Shown here one piece after another: positions 15,036 through 26,658 of a stretch of 64,000 bases of DNA. A program made the position numbers and the translations under genes. The notes under the pieces are model-generated. The model searched no databases, had not been told where the DNA came from, and was given only the letters and a program-made list of their open reading frames with translations. This DNA is from Octopus vulgaris (Eukaryota). How positions within the stretch are numbered: position 1 is the first letter of the stretch; the number at the start of each line of letters is the position of its first letter. The stretch is from the NCBI GenBank assembly GCA_951406725.2, contig OX597823.1:115258001-115322000 (forward strand), written 5' to 3'.

Positions 15036-16544
15036 AATGTGTGTATATATATATATATACCTCTAGAATACTCAAGGATTTTTGAGAAGTTGAAAAGGGA
15101 GGGGAAAAATGTATCCATCCAAATTTGAGAGTCAGTCAAAGCCGCTAGAGCTGAGATTCAATAGCTAAGGCATTAGATATGGTGTAGAATATAATTAAGA
15201 ATGAATTTTCATGAGCATCTCAGACAAAATACCCACCCGTCCACCCACCAAGTGTTAGTCAAAGATGAACATCAGTAGAGTATCAAAATAGTCTTAGTAT
15301 GGGAAGAATGAACTAATGAACACGTTTTATAAATCACAGTGTAAATATAATTTCAGGGAAAAATCCCCACAGGAGGAGAATTAAACTACCAAACTTTATA
15401 TACGTGTCCTCATGTCTCCTATGAAAGACAATTTTCATAAATTGACAGTCATCCAAAAAGAATTTTTCTCTTCAGAAGTTCTTATGGACGGATGCCAGAT
15501 GATAGCTTTAAATGGGAATATCCTGATAAATTAGATAACTAGAGGAGCAGAACAATACTTCCCAACAGGTTTCTTGCTTTCATGTTCAGTTTCTCTGTAA
15601 TTTTGGTTGAGCCCTCTTGAAGTTCTTAGTTGAGCTAATGGAGAAGTAAAATGCTAAAAAGATTAATATCAAGTTATGTCATGGTAGCAGCTGTATTGTT
15701 TTATGTCATGCATCATTTTCATGAAGATGAAATAGAGATTTTAAAATTATAATAAAATGTCACTGGATGTGGTCAGCCAGTAAAGATAATGAGATCACAT
15801 TTTGCACATTGAGGGGAAGGGAAGAAATTCAGTATAAATAATTAGTAAACTTATATGGACTGTCACACAGTTCACTCAATTTGAAAGTAGAAATTACTAC
15901 ACAAATAACAGATGTAAAAGTACAGATTAAACTAAAAGACAGAATTACTAAAGCAAACTATTTCTTTTACAACGTTATTTTTTTTTTAATTTAAAAAGAA
16001 AAAAAAGAAAGCAGCTTTACTAAGAAATAAATAAAATGGCAAACAAACTATTAGTGAAAAAGCAGCATGCAATGAAAAAAAAAAAGCAACAAACCAGACA
16101 AAATAATGAAAAAAATTTAATAACGATAAATTAGTGAGCCACAAAATAAACAAAGAAAGACAGAAAAAAAAAATATTAACAGAATGAAACTGTAATACTG
16201 ACAACTAATGATGCAATACTTTGGAAAACAATAAATAATGCAAAAGAAAATAAACAAACAAAAAATACCAATTTCTGCCCGTTTGCTTGACTAAGTTAAA
16301 CTATGGGACAAAGTGTCATTAAATAAGTCAAAATAATATATACCAGAATTAAATAAATTATGCTGATATGAACACAAATGGCTTTCACTTCCAATATACT
16401 TTGGTGTTTTGATTTAAATCTGATATGCCTTATATGGCGGATGACTGTAGGCCATATGGCATGGAATACACCAGCAAAAAAGTCCGCATCTATGACCACA
16501 TCTCTGACTAGGAGTCCATCAGGATATTTTTTCTCCTTCATGTC
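3295..16544 (-). other. Putative extended 3' UTR of the ELAV gene (up to about 13 kb)
   Basis: Follows the stop codon. No credible ORFs and no recognisable interspersed repeats; many long U-tracts on the sense strand; ends near an AATAAA plus GU-rich signal. The extent is inferred. Confidence 0.45.
3314..3319 (-). terminator. Candidate distal polyadenylation signal
   Basis: AATAAA on minus followed by ATGTGATACTTGTCAAAATTGTTGTCTCAG (GU-rich downstream), at the boundary where repeat-like sequence resumes. Confidence 0.3.
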
Positions 16545-16961
<417 letters not shown>

Positions 16962-17019
16962 TTATATAAAAACCTTCAAAAAAAGCTATATTGAACAATT
17001 GTTATCAAGTTCTACCAAC

Positions 17020-17251
17020 CTGAATCTTCCAGCAGCATGATGAATTGGACCAAAGATTCTCCTACTTGGTGATAAATATGAAGCTGCTAAAGCTAGAGGT
17101 ACAGCATTTTTATTTGAGCTTGGAGAGTTAGCAAACTTTACAGTAATAGGTTCAGTTGCTCCTTCAGGAATGGTACCGTGTAATTTTTGGATAGCTCTTT
17201 CAGCTTCGATTCGTTGATCAAATCGGATGAAGCCAACACCTTTGGATAAGC
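17020..17251 (-). CDS. elav: ELAV-like exon: RRM2 C-half plus hinge
   Basis: tag|GC...TTC AG|gttggt; 232 nt, phase 1 to 2. Translates (G)[76 protein letters not shown](R). Confidence 0.96.
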
Positions 17252-19837
17252 CTAAATAGAATTGAAAAGGGATATCAAACTATGTGGTAATCAATATGTA
17301 CAACGCTCACACACACACATACACACAGATTCTACAAAGTTCAAATTCAGCCCATTATCAAATTCAATCAACCAAATTTCAATGAAAAATAAATGATTTT
17401 AAAGAAGTTAAAGACTATGTATGAAACTTGATAACATTTTAGAGCTACTGATAGAGTTTAGTACAGAACTGGGGCCAAAAGTAAAAAGTTTGTAGTTTAT
17501 ACTTCTTCCTGTTTTCTTCAGTCTAAAAATTGTAGTAATTTAGTTTCGGGCACTTCAAAATGACATGTACATAAATTTCAAATACAGAATATGTCATCCC
17601 CCAATTTAGGTTTATGTGGGGAGCAATATATAAACAATGTTGTTAAAATAGTCTCAAAGACTATATTGAAATTCTTGCAGATTTCATAAAGTTAATTATT
17701 GATAAAAACATTTTTCTGTTGGTCATTTTTGTTATTTCATTCCAATGAAAATATATTTGGAATATCAGAAGTATATACTAACTCAAACTGTAATGATATC
17801 AAAGAACAGTATGTTCTAAAACAACCTTAAAATATCTCACAAAGATTGTTTAGCTATCTAACTTGACTTTAGACATACAGGTTAGTAGCACTAATAAAGG
17901 AAATACAACATTAATTAAATGTGTTTGATTATTCATTATAGAGATTTAAGCCACTTTGCTTTGTATTTTATTGCCTCTTCAAGTTAAGAATCAACAGAAG
18001 CAATATTTATTTATTGAAGGTGAATTAAAAGAAAAAAAAAGGGGGGGATACACTTCTTGATGTTAAGAGGAATACACTTCTATAAAACTGCCAACATATT
18101 CTAGAGCAATTGAAGGAGCTCATTATTGATAATTATGGAGATTAACATATGCAATATACTAAGACAACCATTTCATATACAATAAATGTATAAAGGTGTA
18201 CAGACAAGGAGGAGTAAGGAAAGAGAAAGAGAGAAAGAGTGGAACAAAGCAGTGAGAGGAGAGGACAAGATAAGAGCTAGAAGAATTACAAGAAAAAACA
18301 GAGAGAATGAGAAAATCAGTGGAAAAATTGAAGGTAGAGTGAGTAATATAACTAGAAGATGGGGGTAGAATAGAAACAGTTTGTCTGCCCTTCAGTACAT
18401 GTTAGAAAATAAATAGAAATTACATAATAAAAAAAAAACAACTGAAATACAAACATAAAACATTTTATATGCAAAGAAAACTCTTTTACTGGATAATTTT
18501 GAAAATATTCAACTTGAAAATAAAATATAAATAATTCTGAATAGAAAGAAAGTTTCCTAATATTAAATTTACATAAAACTTGAAAGCAGTTTGCTTTCAC
18601 AGAGATACCCCACGGAAACTGAAAAGAGGTAATATACACATATGTGTAAACAAAGTTTGTTTTTGTTGCCTTTATTTTTAATAAGGGAAAAATAAGGTAA
18701 ATGAAAATAAAAATGAAATAAACCTCTGTCAAAAAATCCAGTTTATAATAAGTGAGTTTTTTTTTTCTGGGGACCAAACTAAAACCCATGAGAACTTACA
18801 CCTTTTTAAAATCAACTTTTCTAAAAATAAACACTATAAAAAATATGAAATTTTGAAAAGTCAATTTCAACAGAGCAAATAGATTTCCAAAAACAAAACC
18901 AATGACCCAACTAATAGAAACTGAAAAAAGGGTACACATAACTGAAGAGCAATATTTGCTACATATTTCCAATTTTAGAACAATAATTATTTAGAAGAAA
19001 ATTGGGAATCTTCTCAGTCTACTTTAACGTAAACAATGTCTTAATTAATAGCCATAAATGTAAGTACTGAAGCAATGGTTTTTTTTATTGAATCTTTATC
19101 AATTAACATAACAGTTAATTAACAAAAGACATGTCTTCAACTGATTTAACTTTTACAAAGTAAATACAGGCTACGTACATCTCATTTAAAATGATAAACC
19201 CTAAACCCCATAATTAAAGACAATAATTCTATATTTTATGGAAATTGAAAGACCAAAGAGAAAATAAAAACAAGTAAATAACTCTAATATATTTTGAAAA
19301 ATAAGAACCAGTCATCCTCAATAATACAAAATAGAGTTTGACATAATGGAAAGAGAAAAAATCCATAAATACATTTAGTGCATGATCATTTAATTAGCAA
19401 GGGTCAGATCACAAACATTCACTGTTACCATTTGACAGAAGACATGCTCATGGTTTTGCAGAGTATGAAAAGCCAGTATTTCGTAAGGCAATATCCAACA
19501 GCTGGATCTGAATTTAAAGCAAAGCAAAACAGCTTAATCATATGTGCCAAAGATAGACATCTTAAGAATAGTCTACCAATAACCAATAGAGAAGTTTGAA
19601 ACCCATCGTTTTTGGCCAATATAATCATGCTCCGAAATCTTCCACATTCAAATTGTAAACTAAATAAAAATTCCATGCAGCTTGATTATGAACAGTGTGT
19701 TCATAGAGCTAGAATATAGATAATAATAATAATAAATAAAAAGGAAAAAAAGAAAAGCAATGAAATGACAAAAATAAAATCATCAGTGCATGTTGGAACT
19801 GAAATTGAAGCAAGCAGAGGACAAATTTAAAACTCTA

Positions 19838-19993
<156 letters not shown>

Positions 19994-20019
19994 CTAAAAA
20001 TAATTAGTGAAGGTGGTTA

Positions 20020-20199
<180 letters not shown>

Positions 20200-20447
20200 T
20201 TAACAAAGAATCTTAAAAATATAAAAACAACAAAAGAGAAAAATAGAGAAATAAAAGATAACAAAATAAATTATTTAGCAGCAATATTAATTATATTTCA
20301 AGCATAACAAATTAAAATAATCAAAATTTTAAAAATTTATATTAGCCAACTAATTGGACTTGGAGTGCAAAACTTAGATTTCAAAGTAGTTCAGAATTGT
20401 AATAAATCAGAAAACAGAACCAAAAAAATATCAATTCTAAGGGGTTA

Positions 20448-20648
<201 letters not shown>

Positions 20649-21961
20649 TTAGTAATGATGATGATTATATCTGTATGTAATGTAAATAACAAAAAATACA
20701 CCAACAAAACTTGAATTCACATTAACAAATATATTGTAACATTGAACCTGACATTAAAAGCTAACTGAGGAAATACCTCGAGAGAAATAAAATATAGTTA
20801 AGCCATTAACTGGTAAAGAATATTCTGAGAATTTAAAATTCTAAGAACTTGTACATGAGGAAAAGCCCCACATCTAGTCTTCATATATACAGCAAAAAAT
20901 TGTGATGATCTTTGTTTTTTAATTCCTTTTAAGACCTGCACTAGAAATATATGTCATCACATTAATATAAATTCAGACATTGATATAATCTAATATTTTT
21001 ACACTCTGAGACATTTTAAAAATTGAATTTAACAATGTATAACTTGTTAAACAGTTGTAATGATATCTAAACCACTGAAGTATGCAATCCAAGTTTTATA
21101 TCACATACAAGATATTTAATTCATTAAATTTAGTTTCACAAAACATCTAATAAATACAAAAGCAAAACAAAAAAAAAAATAACTCCTACAACTGTAACAT
21201 AAATGAAAATACACAAATTTATGTACAAAAACAGCTGATTCCTAACTAGGAAAATGCAGAAATTAAATCACCAAATGAATATTATCTAGTGTAATAAATT
21301 CAGTGTAAGTTCCTATTGAGAAACATATTGAGACATTTCCTGTTAAAAAGCTTCATTAATTTTGAAGTTTTAAACTCAATTTAGGAGCAGCGAAATATAC
21401 TTCCATTCACTAAATAATTCACATTAAAATGTGTATAGCAGTAATTTAATGAATACTTTTGTAAATGTTACTACAACAAGGTCAGCCAATGGTAATACTG
21501 ATAAATCTAATCCATAAAATTGTAAAATTAGTCATTAACAATTTTCAAATATCCAAAAATGTTATTTGAACCCAGGAAATAAATTTATGAAATGAAAAAA
21601 AATAAAATATTTTAATACAAAGTCAGTGATTACTCAAATCGCATTTTTTTTTTTTTTGTAAGATCTTTTTTTTTTTTTTTTTGTAAGTTATTCAAAATGG
21701 ACTGAATCGCTGACAGAAAAGGAAAAAAATCCACATTTCAAGAAATTATTCTGCTTCAGTATAAAGCCAAAAATATTTAGTTTAAAAAAAAAAAAAACGA
21801 AAAAAAAAGAAAATCCTCTTTTTAACGAATTCTTTCTTTTGATACTGTGCAAATAAATGGTAGAAACATACCAGTTCAAAGTCTTACTATACATATAATA
21901 ACAAGCAAGCAAATATTTAAAAAAAACTTTAATTAATAATGTACCCACTTCCAATTGATAC

Positions 21962-21991
21962 CTGTTAATTGTGAGGAAGATAATGAAGAAA
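21962..21991 (-). CDS. elav: Candidate 30-nt cassette microexon in the RRM1 loop
   Basis: ttttacttaaactag|TT TCT TCA TTA TCT TCC TCA CAA TTA ACA G|gtatca; symmetric phase 1, stop-free (xSSLSSSQLT). Confidence 0.45.
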
Positions 21992-22071
21992 CTAGTTTAA
22001 GTAAAAGGTAAATAAATATATGGTAGAAAAGATCAGTAAACGGTAAGGAAAAAAAACCATTAGTTTCTTAC

Positions 22072-22086
22072 TGCAGTAAGGAGAGC
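22072..22086 (-). CDS. elav: Candidate 15-nt microexon in the RRM1 loop
   Basis: tgcttaaatttgctgtttgcctttatctag|GC TCT CCT TAC TGC A|gtaaga; strong donor, TGC-rich pyrimidine tract, symmetric phase 1 (xSPYC). Confidence 0.55.
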
Positions 22087-23734
22087 CTAGATAAAGGCAA
22101 ACAGCAAATTTAAGCAAAGTGTAAAACATAATCATTGTAATTCTTAAGTAGAGTAACATGCATACTATTAAAAGGTTAATGTCTGCCTCTACACGCATAT
22201 ACTGTATATTTGTACACAAAAAAAACACATGATTAGATTGTGTAGCACATGTTCACATTATTCAAAGGTGTTCCAAAAGCTTCTACCCATTCAAAATTGC
22301 ATCAGAAAATGTTTAAAATGAATAAAAACCATTGAAAACACTAAGTAAATAATAAAAAGACATCACACAATCAGCATGTATTTCTCCACTATGTCACTCA
22401 GCCAGATTTTATCACAAAAATATAAGGATTCAATCAGAGTTATCAATGCTGCTAGTAGATGCCAAGGAAAGAAACCTGAATGAATTAGTAATTTTATAAC
22501 CAGTTTGACATGCTGTTAACACAAGAATGTAAAGGTTAGAGGTTAAAGGTTCAACTCTAGTTAAAGTATTCTTTTCTGTATCATTTCTGTAATGGGTGGA
22601 TTTTTCTGAGTGAAAATTTTGTGGAACAGATTATTATTGATCATAGGAGCTGAGGTTTTGCATGTAAATGAACACTATGATTTAAGTGAGTGTATATGAT
22701 AACTTACACTGAGAACTAAATAGCAGAGTTTGTGCTGAATGGGCAAGAGCAGTAACCATTATTGAGAGTCAAACATGCCATGCCAATGTCTTTTTTAGGA
22801 CAACTACAATTGTATAGTTGAGAATATTTAATGTGTTTGCCATTCTTCAAGATTGTTCCATTAGCATCTATATCTTGCAATAATTTGCCATATTTTCTGT
22901 CCTAATATTAGCTTAAAGAAGTTCAGACAAAACATCAAACACATCAACTCTAAGCTCTCCTTATAGGCTTCTTTAGGATGTAAATTAAAAATGGTATAAG
23001 TATTGCAGTTCCTTCTTGTATTATTAATGGACTTTAAAGTTCTCTATTACTAAAATGGCAAAGTCTGTAGTTTAACAATTAACATGCAGTTGATACATTC
23101 AATAAATGACTTGTTTAATTCATGCTGGAGTTAATCATAAGACTTATTATTATTATTATTATGATTATGAGGTGCATAAATATACCTTTGGACTATTTCT
23201 ATTAGTGAGACAAATAGATATCCAAAATTTAGTTAGTACAACAGGAAGAAACTAGAAATGGGTACTTTACCAACAAAAATTTAAAACGTTCATCCTATCA
23301 AGACAGAAATTTATTCAATTATCAAATAAGTGTGTTTTTTTTTTTTTAATCATTGCATTTTTTTTTTTTTCTTTGGCCTGTCTTATTGGGAAATGTATAA
23401 AGTTTGATAATCCAGAGTAGCAAATGAACTAAACTAAGTTTTATTTGCCAAGTATAAGAGCCAACACCAAAATAAAGTTAATATCTTTCATTTCAAAATT
23501 CCTTCAATAAAGATTATCCTTTAATTCTTAAGTAGTTTCCAAATTAAAAATTAAGAAAAAATAAAAAGATACGCCATTGTTTTACAATAAGATGCTTGTT
23601 ACAAGAAAGAATATATGAACTGAACTAATAAACCAATTCTTTGTAATAAAAAAAAATGTGAATTCTTTTCCAGTGACATTTGAAAATTTTATTGATTTTT
23701 TTAGTTATTTATTATGGATAGCAATAATACACAC

Positions 23735-23800
23735 ATTTTTCCGCATCGGTTGATGCATTTCGTGCTGCCGGAAGCAGGTCACAGTGAAAGTCAGTGTTAG
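23735..23800 (-). CDS. elav: Candidate 66-nt cassette exon in the RRM1 loop
   Basis: GC-rich island in an AT-rich intron. ctttttttccataatag|CT AAC...GAA AAA T|gtgtgt; symmetric phase 1; (A)NTDFHCDLLPAARNASTDAEK. Confidence 0.7.
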
Positions 23801-24849
23801 CTATTATGGAAAAAAAGAGGAACACTTGCATAAAATATCTACAGGTACATGTCAAAACCTTACGGCATTAATGGCAAGGCATCAGGTTTGATGTTAAATT
23901 TAATGATCTAATCTATTATGACTATTTACATGCAAACTATTTTATACAAGTTGTAAGTACAAAAGAAAAAAATTTCTTGAAATGTAGATTTTTCTTTGAA
24001 ATCAATTCAAGCTATTTTTCAAAATATCTTCAATACTTCTTTTCTAAATTTTTACAAATGAGTAGTTAAAACCCTTAAAGCAATACATAGGTGTTATGTA
24101 TGATTTATTTATATAGACACATTTTAATAAATAATTAAGTATGAACATGTATGCTTTACACTAACCAATAAACCCATCACAATAAAGTTAAATAATCTTA
24201 GATACAATCTTGAGAACAATTAATGTTTTTGATAATAGATTGAAGTGGAATGCTGACCAAAATGAACTAATTTAAATACAGGTGAAATATTTGTGTTCAA
24301 ACATCACTTTAATGATTTACAAAAGTAGGTATAACAATGAAATGCTAAATAGCCATTTATATCTAAATTAATATTTTGTGGTTTGAAATCAAATTTTTAG
24401 AGCTTCAGTTCAAAGTGAGCTTTAAATCATTTATCCAAACAGAACACTCATACTAAAACATTTCATAATCCAAAATGTTTCTCAGTAAATCTTAAATGAG
24501 ATTACAGTTACCAGATAGGTGATGGAATCATTTGCTTAAAAATTTATTAATATCCTTTAAAGCATATTTTGTTCAGGGCATTTTGATAGCTTAGTGAATA
24601 ATTTTTATATGGACTAAAGAAATCAAAATAAGTAAAAGAAAAAAAAAATCAATATCTTTCCATACTCAAGAATTTTAGAAGATCTAAGGGAAAGGAAATT
24701 TAAAACTGAGGTATGAGATTGCTATAGAAACTATACAATACGAAATTAGGCAACAATTTAAAAACTTGTTTTCAAATACTTTATGAAAAGAAATTTATTA
24801 AAAATCAAAATCAAAGAAATATCAAAACATGAACAAGTCAGAAAATATC

Positions 24850-24893
<44 letters not shown>

Positions 24894-24934
24894 TATATAA
24901 GTATATATATATATATATATATATATATAAGTAT

Positions 24935-24969
<35 letters not shown>

Positions 24970-25369
24970 AATTATAAAAATAAACAAAATTAAAATTTAG
25001 ACAAAATAATGTTCAAAACTGGGATTATGTTAAATATCATAATTCATAATACAATTACGCAAATTAAAAAACTAAAATACTGAAAATTTTTCAATGCTTT
25101 GAATTTAATCAAAAAAATGTTGATGAAACATTGAATACTTCAATGGCTGGCATATTAACTAATGATTTAAATTCACAATTTGAAAGAAATGCAATTGTAA
25201 GCCAAAGAGGCAGTGAAACTAAATATATATTAAAAGTTATAGGTTGAATATTGTAACAATTTTTTAAATATCCTATAATGGTGTGAGTACATAAATGTGA
25301 GACTTGAAAACAATCTATGAGCCACTTAAGGTGTTTCTACTACAATAACTACAACTAGTAATAATAATG

Positions 25370-26160
25370 GTTTCTAATTTGAGTATAAGGCCAACGATTT
25401 AAGTTGGCACTTTCAACCTCAGTGCTTAGCTGGTACTTTATTTTATCAACCCTGAAAGGATGAAAGGCAATGCCGGCCTTAGCAAGATTTGAACTCACAA
25501 TATAAAGAGTCAGAAGAAATGATAAAATGCAATTCTTCCAACATTTTAATAACTCAGCCAGCTTACCACCTTGATAATCATAACTGCTTTCTTAACAGTC
25601 ACAGGCCAAGAAATTTGGTGGAGGGGTTATTTGATTATATCGTTCTTAGTATTTAATTGCTTAGTATTTAGTGAGCTGAAAGGTAAAGATCTTGGCGGGA
25701 TTTGATCACAGGACGTAAGTGGCAGGAAGAAATACTCCAATATTTCATCCGATGTTTTAATGATTCAGATAATATATAACCTTTAATAGTTTCTAATATG
25801 GCTACAAGGCCAAAAATTAAATGGTCTTTCAATATATGATTGGTACTATATAATAATAAAGTCTGGAAGGATGAAAAGCAAAGCTGAGGGTGGCAGGATT
25901 TAAATTTAGACTGTAAAATGCCAGAACAAATACAGAAAGGCATTTTCTCAATGCTTGACTGATTCTGCTACTCCATCATCCTTAACAATAATACAATTTT
26001 CTAAGATTGGTACAAGGACACATAATTAGGTGAAGTCATGAGTGCTGTTTACTTCACCAATCTGGAAGATAAAAGGCAAAGTATATCCTGCTGGCATTTG
26101 AACTCAGAATGTGAAAAAACAAAATGGAACTGACTATTCACAAGCATTTTGTCTGCCATT
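25370..26160 (-). mobile_element. Cluster of about three degenerate tRNA-SINE family B copies
   Basis: Repeated decayed AAAGGATGAAAGGCAA...GATTTGAACTCAGAA segments, the reverse complement of the 38157-38410 element. Confidence 0.55.
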
Positions 26161-26607
26161 CAGCGCAACATAAAAAGAAAATGAGAGTGTACTTCTGTAG
26201 GACAGTATATCCTCAATATGTTTAATGTTGAAATCTAGTGTTACTACTGACAGTAAAGAGACATCCTATGAGCTTCATGGATAGAATAATTTCAAATTTT
26301 GTTAAAATAAAATCATAAATATGAAAGAAATGCATTAACATATATTAGTTAGATATAGCTAAACTTTTCTACAATTTAAATAGACAAAAAAATTGAAAAT
26401 ATATTTTTAAAAATCATGATAAACAGGAGTCTACCTAGACTCTGGAAGAATTTCACTACACAAAAGTATAAAATGTAATTAGGAGTATGATATATATTAA
26501 TCTATCAAAAAAAACCTTCATTCCTATACAATATATGTTTAAATTTATGTCTTACTTAGAAGCTAAATTGTTTTCTATTTCTGTGAATATTAAGATAGAT
26601 CAAATAC

Positions 26608-26658
26608 CTGTTTCCGGCAGTCCTTGATCTAAATCATTCTGTCTCAGTGTGTTCATTG
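26608..26658 (-). CDS. elav: Candidate 51-nt cassette exon in the RRM1 loop
   Basis: Long U-rich tract, then ctgcag|CA ATG AAC...GAA ACA G|gtattt; symmetric phase 1; (A)MNTLRQNDLDQGLPET. Confidence 0.75.

Follow-up and report, generated by a model that had tools for sequence, protein, structure and literature searches.

How many proteins does an octopus ELAV/Hu gene make, and do they differ in the RNA that they recognise? The question arises in a 64,000-nt stretch of Octopus vulgaris DNA (the window), for which a sequence-only reading had placed four cassette exons in the intron just before the exon encoding GQSLGYGFV. These were taken to enlarge the loop between beta2 and beta3 of RRM1 and, together with an alternative RRM2 exon pair, to give 16 to 32 variants that make up a modular RNA-recognition code. 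We compare this proposal with proteins, transcript contigs, splice-signal statistics and a structure prediction.

The identity of the gene was claimed correctly. Six-frame motif scans and the sequence itself mark the minus-strand gene as ELAV/Hu, the RRM matches agree, and an AlphaFold2 model with its secondary structure shows three RRMs, the last two joined by a hinge; matches are to HuD, HuC, HuR and the RRM3 of fly ELAV. The protein is identical to entries labelled as Octopus species, among which the O. vulgaris entries possibly come from the same genome and do not count as independent support. The first-half RRM1 exon is absent from the 64,000-nt window; an RRM search of the species' own genome placed it about 20 kb past the window end. 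It finishes with ...RDKPT plus one base, at a donor at G000:C10:115341735 whose next letters are GTAAGC, and the intron from there to the GQSLGYGFV exon is 63,108 nt long. The exon thus ends in phase 1, as the sequence-only reading had named beforehand as a check on its scheme, and the insert position in the RRM1 beta2-beta3 loop also proved right. The octopus gene therefore has the conserved phase-1 junction before RNP1 of RRM1 that is defined as J2 in the available part of Samson 2008 (PMC2529313). Features are collected in Table 1.

Table 1. Exons and candidate exons of the octopus ELAV/Hu gene (positions in the window unless a genome coordinate is given)
Feature	Position	Strand	Basis or remark
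First-half RRM1 exon, 226 nt	G000:C10:115341735-115341960	-	Outside the window; RRM search of own genome
E51, 51-nt coding exon, 17 residues	26608..26658	-	Proteins and transcript contigs
E66, 66-nt cassette exon, 22 residues	23735..23800	-	Proteins and transcript contigs
E15, 15-nt candidate microexon	22072..22086	-	Splice signals only
E30, 30-nt candidate, weakest of the four	21962..21991	-	Splice signals only
Constitutive exon, second half of RRM1 (RNP1, LGYGFV)	20523..20626	-	Acceptor is family junction J2
RRM2 first-half exon A, 154 nt	20040..20193	-	Spliced on both sides in 4/4 runs
RRM2 first-half exon B, 154 nt	19840..19993	-	Downstream joint in 3/4 runs, upstream joint in 2/4
Rest of RRM2 and hinge exon	17019..17250	-	
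Last exon, coding part (RRM3 and stop)	16545..16866	-	

All four AG..GT segments of 51, 66, 15 and 30 nt are present on the minus strand where they were placed. All 16 of their 16 combinations keep the frame open, and inclusion of all four adds 54 residues, again as claimed. Taken alone, however, these properties do not go beyond chance: in this intron 2,235 AG..GT segments of 9-99 nt are stop-free and have a length divisible by three, 175 of them within 20627-27000, and the antisense count is 2,441.

Evidence of use came from two sources. The proteins comprised 254 fetched entries, 14 of them octopod proteins informative for the insert, with 15 of the 19 members of the main protein cluster included; searching with the upstream exon returned 691 relatives, of which the best 120 were read. 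The transcript contigs come from 4 of 24 listed runs, spanning four studies and two organism labels. They cover the region 16400-21600 only, where joints among the upstream candidates are not directly visible; since introns are missing from them, with the breaks at splice sites, we treat them as RNA. Metagenome contigs were also scanned for cephalopod DNA or cDNA with two patterns; one gave 0 matches, and the other gave 21, none of which carried ELAV RNP motifs.

E66 is a real, alternatively used cassette exon. It is found in 10 of the 14 octopod proteins and is absent from the other 4, is identical in O. vulgaris, O. bimaculoides, O. sinensis and Argonauta hians, and was seen in octopods only. 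The contigs join it to the GQSLGY exon in all four runs, and one run (X1) has the E66-skipped form as well, with E51 joined to the GQSLGY exon. Among 14 of the 15 loose contig ends at acceptor 20626, E66 (4/4 runs) and E51 (X1) account for everything recognised, and the upstream exon joined straight to the GQSLGY exon finds no match. The donor of E66 is weak (AAT/GTGTGT), which would explain why the exon is partly skipped; its inclusion changes the Gly preceding QSLGY to Cys. A genome search finds E66 in single copy. As for its origin, searches for a repeat source of E66 or of the E15/E30 region returned self matches only (a weak check, simple repeats being skipped by the search), and derivation from E51 was ruled out by sequence comparison.

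E51 is a real exon, common to octopods and squid and apparently constitutive. It occurs in 18 of 18 coleoid proteins that pass J2 (fetched proteins, including cluster members), four of which, O. sinensis models, begin at a Met within E51. The E51-skipped form was seen neither among these 18 proteins nor at the contig junctions of the four runs. Loose ends of 147 nt in runs X11 and X13 equal 66 + 51 + 30 and are consistent with E51 inclusion by length only, their first 30 letters being visible. Thus the sequence-only reading ranked its candidates well, since proteins and contigs bear out the two exons that it found most convincing; of its four cassettes, E66 stands as a cassette and E51 as an exon never seen skipped. 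Four independent cassettes were rejected, there being no E15 or E30 product and no form without E51.

For E15 and E30 the record is empty. Their peptides occur in none of the 254 fetched proteins, of which the 14 octopod ones are informative (0 of 14), these being gene models and not independent counts, and neither segment matches 14 of the 15 contig loose ends of the four runs, in contigs that drop rare variants. Shorter proteins were searched for fragments with other inserts, and the best 120 of 148 contained none of the four peptides; many long inserts among them resemble intron read-through and were not counted. Most likely, E15 and E30 are unused or rarely used splice-site pairs.

Their splice signals nevertheless exceed a shuffled background, and one alternative, which we hold to be unlikely while leaving it an appreciable chance, is that E15, E30 and perhaps a 27-nt candidate at 22708-22734 belong to a larger microexon array, included at low level or in few neuron types. 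There would then be more than four forms, still acting as loop tuners. E15 has the donor GCA/GTAAGA, a 54-nt AG-free zone and three TGC within its last 40 upstream nucleotides; E30 has the donor CAG/GTATCA and a 73-nt AG-free zone, with no TGC and a G+C of 0.30 as in its flanks. The 27-nt segment combines TGC with a long AG-free zone, and it and E15 share in this the TGC and AG-exclusion features of eMIC targets, as these are described in the available sections of PMC8797185. By comparison, E51 has one TGC near its acceptor and a 45-nt AG-free zone, and E66 has one TGC and a short zone of 22 nt.

The statistics point both ways. When splice signals were filtered more strictly (YAG, pyrimidine fraction, good donor, at least 40 nt free of AG), 5 segments remained in the last 6.4 kb of the intron, against 0.17-0.18 in local dinucleotide shuffles with two block sizes (0/400 reach 4) and 0.45 expected from the remaining 56.7 kb (P = 0.001 without E51). 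Site pairs in these 6.4 kb fall 5:1:1 by length modulo 3, and same-species variants of 1-9 residues are found at J2 in Daphnia and other relatives. The filter, however, was tuned to admit E15 and E30, gives P = 0.076 when they are left out, and misses the true exon E66. A rough splice-site weight matrix ranks E66 8th, E51 28th, E15 16th and E30 127th among the 2,235 segments. Segments scoring at least as well as E15 number 16, and those scoring at least as well as E30 number 127; on the antisense strand the corresponding counts are 9 and 63. Sequence by itself cannot decide whether E15 and E30 are exons, and they appear in no protein or visible junction.

A second choice is made in RRM2, where the proposed exon pair is confirmed as mutually exclusive by contig joints. 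Exons A and B share 120 of 154 nt and 44 of 51 residues (7 differ) and are separated by an intron of 46 nt; including both shifts the frame into stops, and an A-B joint is listed in none of the contigs of the four runs. Exclusion probably works through the short intron together with decay of the frameshifted form. With E66 in or out and RRM2 A or B, the forms on record are 2 x 2 = 4, all of them annotated in both O. bimaculoides and O. sinensis, and the forecast of 16 to 32 variants gives way to these four. Where an exon array encodes a recognition code combinatorially, as in Dscam, many independent exon choices go with isoform-specific binding specificity. The octopus transcripts show two binary choices.

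The structural effect of the inserts was predicted with AlphaFold2, as the sequence-only reading had suggested, and in the model the RRM1 core is preserved, while the insert forms a loop of low confidence. All three RRMs are confident, as are beta2 (57-64) and beta3 (110-118); the insert (67-107) lies below pLDDT 50, which may reflect thin coverage rather than disorder, few of the 39 rows of the alignment covering it. The best match in both fold and sequence is HuD (1FXL), and the inserts leave RNP1 and RNP2 unchanged. The 39-residue insert has 7 acidic and 3 basic residues. An insert of 17 or 39 residues is predicted to form a flexible loop of net acidic charge next to an RNA-binding sheet that stays intact, and from such an arrangement a role as spacer or electrostatic damper would follow. 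On balance we favour, with reasonable though not strong confidence, the reading that E51 is apparently always included and E66 optional, and that the loop tunes binding strength or partner access, not base choice.

That the inserts change base specificity appears quite improbable. The fuller proposal, in which combinatorial inclusion alters RNA specificity and one gene makes proteins with different targets, we regard as very improbable. The beta2-beta3 loop does contribute to specificity in some RRMs, and the octopus inserts are strongly conserved in an almost invariant protein. The available part of PMC2529313 also suggests that RNA contacts can be altered by changes upstream of RNP1, and describes fly ELAV with a swapped RRM1 as largely non-functional. 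Against this stand an insert predicted to lack stable structure and the unrelated inserts tolerated across protostomes; the modular code itself finds no support, as only four forms are found and RNP1 and RNP2 are untouched.

The proposed loop tuning by E51 and E66 can also be viewed across the family. Of 114 non-coleoid relatives, 60 have an insert at J2 and 54 lack one; these 114 are the 118 parsed among the best 120 minus 4 coleoid proteins, and some inserts may be gene-model errors. The inserts are unrelated in sequence, and both states occur within Daphnia pulex, Gigantopelta aegis, Adelges cooleyi, Atheta coriaria and other species, which fits a tolerant loop. A search with the loop region matched only four coleoid clusters and revealed no insert resembling E51 beyond the coleoids.

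Within coleoids, E51 is identical at 16 of 17 residues between octopus and squid. In Doryteuthis pealeii and three further proteins it is followed by a second 17-residue unit, identical to the first at 13 of 17 positions and unrelated to E66 (homology of the two was ruled out, 1,676 of 2,000 shuffles scoring as well). A decayed second copy of E51 was not found in the octopus intron, where the best non-self score is 25 vs 102. On the simplest reading, E51 would have been gained before the octopod-squid split and later fixed, and the second additions would be separate: in octopods a new exon and in squid, judging from the proteins, a tandem copy of the 17-residue unit.

Could the inserts be near-neutral passengers, exonised pieces of intron that the loop tolerates and that persist through overlapping splicing signals or slow change? 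The free variation of J2 inserts in length and sequence between lineages would suit such an origin, as would the weak donor of E66. Yet E66 does not vary among the four octopod species and E51 hardly varies as far as squid, the neighbouring intron, unlike the exons, has diverged in organism B by 38 substitutions, besides gaps, over 967 nt, and squid has kept two copies of the unit. We find this explanation scarcely credible. The invariance of E66 and near-invariance of E51 also indicates that sequence and not length alone matters, a point that weighs against our own reading of the loop as a tuner.

Much of this is not new. Public gene models already include E51, E66 and the RRM2 pair, and J2 was described as a hotspot of the family in 2008, with functional variation there already proposed in print (PMC2529313). 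No publication on these exons turned up in a literature search on ELAV splicing in cephalopods or molluscs, subscription journals being mostly outside its coverage. The finding is largely ordinary because inserts at J2 are common in the family; it is a clear added case of a known trend, the variation of ELAV/Hu proteins at conserved exon junctions beside RNA-binding motifs. What remains attractive is the parallel growth of a loop in an almost invariant protein and a small chance of further microexons. The boldest version, in which the last 6 kb is a true array (E51, E66, a 27-nt exon, E15 and E30) read per neuron type and octopods and squids independently enlarged the RRM1 loop towards different RNA targets, has a very slim prospect of being right. 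The coleoids do offer a clean natural experiment, since the octopus and squid proteins are identical at 336 of 337 positions beyond the loop and each has enlarged the loop differently, with 17- and 39-residue forms in octopus; the loop-insert proposal of Samson 2008 becomes testable with two proteins.

Several known systems resemble this one in part. HuD, HuC and HuR RRM1-2 (PDB 1FXL, 1FNX and 4ED5) are the closest solved relatives in sequence and fold, with RNP1 and RNP2 conserved; their loop is short and free of insert, whereas the octopus loop carries one, and a loop insert is present in none of the 16 structure matches.

Drosophila ELAV presumably has a fixed insertion at the same RRM1 position. 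In fly fne a mini-exon splits J2, and the available part of PMC2529313, which calls the J2 region variable and surveys 11 species, none of them a cephalopod, suggests that such junctions are places where function can change. As far as described there, fne and the octopus gene are alike in that a small in-frame exon interrupts J2 and leaves its acceptor in place (E51 and E66 in octopus). Octopus differs in having two exons, one of them alternative, with up to 39 residues of different sequence.

The neural microexon programme, in the available sections of PMC8797185, needs the eMIC domain of Srrm234 and uses UGC near the 3' splice site and a long AG-exclusion zone as signals. E51, E15 and the 27-nt candidate resemble the eMIC microexons so described in having TGC close to the acceptor and a long stretch free of AG; unlike these, E66 is longer with a short AG-free zone, and E51 is not seen skipped. 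Further background comes from the accessible parts of PMC2275111, PMC9839350 and PMC3708524. Finally, the available part of Ustaoglu 2021 (PMC8553928) describes 40 forms of honeybee elavl2, made through RRM2-loop and hinge exons, and cites 24 in cricket. In that account the bee gene, like the octopus gene, diversifies its ELAV proteins through alternative exons that fall in the beta2-beta3 loop of an RRM; the bee places its loop exons in RRM2 and adds the hinge, whereas octopus uses the loop of RRM1 and a duplicated, mutually exclusive RRM2 exon, with four forms.

Contigs confirm that the RRM2 exons are duplicated and mutually exclusive (window 19840-20193, minus strand). In two sequencing runs, X1 and X13, contigs that cover the GQSLGY exon continue into the intron 5′ of it (window 20597-21600), which fits either pre-mRNA or slow removal of that intron.

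Further small-exon candidates in the RRM1 intron are listed in the table. Judged by its sequence features, the 27-nt segment is a microexon candidate on a par with E15, the unproven 15-nt one; it was overlooked in the sequence-only reading. Among the contig junctions shown (four runs, contigs on 16400-21600), none supports the 27-nt or the 21-nt segment.

Candidate small exons of the RRM1 intron (ranks by weight-matrix score among AG..GT, frame-preserving, stop-free segments of 9-99 nt) and a second ELAV-like gene in the octopus's own assembly (G000)
Feature	Location	Strand	Remarks
27-nt frame-preserving candidate segment	22708-22734	-	donor GTAAGT, 53-nt AG-free zone, two TGC; rank 4/2,235
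21-nt candidate segment, a short way 3′ of E51	26435-26455	-	strict filter passed
Putative 30-nt short form of E66, in frame, via internal acceptor	23735-23764	-	rank 15/2,235
Second ELAV-like gene	G000:C21:16944010-16944906	-	a single 314-residue open frame holds three RRM matches

The second ELAV-like gene has no introns across this interval, and its RRM3 is 51% identical. Elsewhere in the window, a frame at about 63750-63900 (plus strand) resembles the terminal part of a mariner-type transposase in decay.

All four Octopus sinensis models (P0124, P0126, P0127 and P0131) start at the Met within exon E51 (26608-26658, minus strand) and are without RNP2 of RRM1. The 57-kb intron upstream has probably led the annotation to these starts; possibly, the models reflect a true internal start in E51.

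The squid-type proteins P0133, P0134, P0004 and P0002 carry a 17-residue loop unit in tandem duplicate. P0002 has 11 additional codons ahead of the duplicate, which look as if the upstream exon had been spliced from an alternative donor. In protein sequence comparison, types resembling RRM2 exon A or exon B are also found among bivalve and gastropod proteins (e.g. P0010 versus P0012), and the exon pair may therefore be mollusc-wide.
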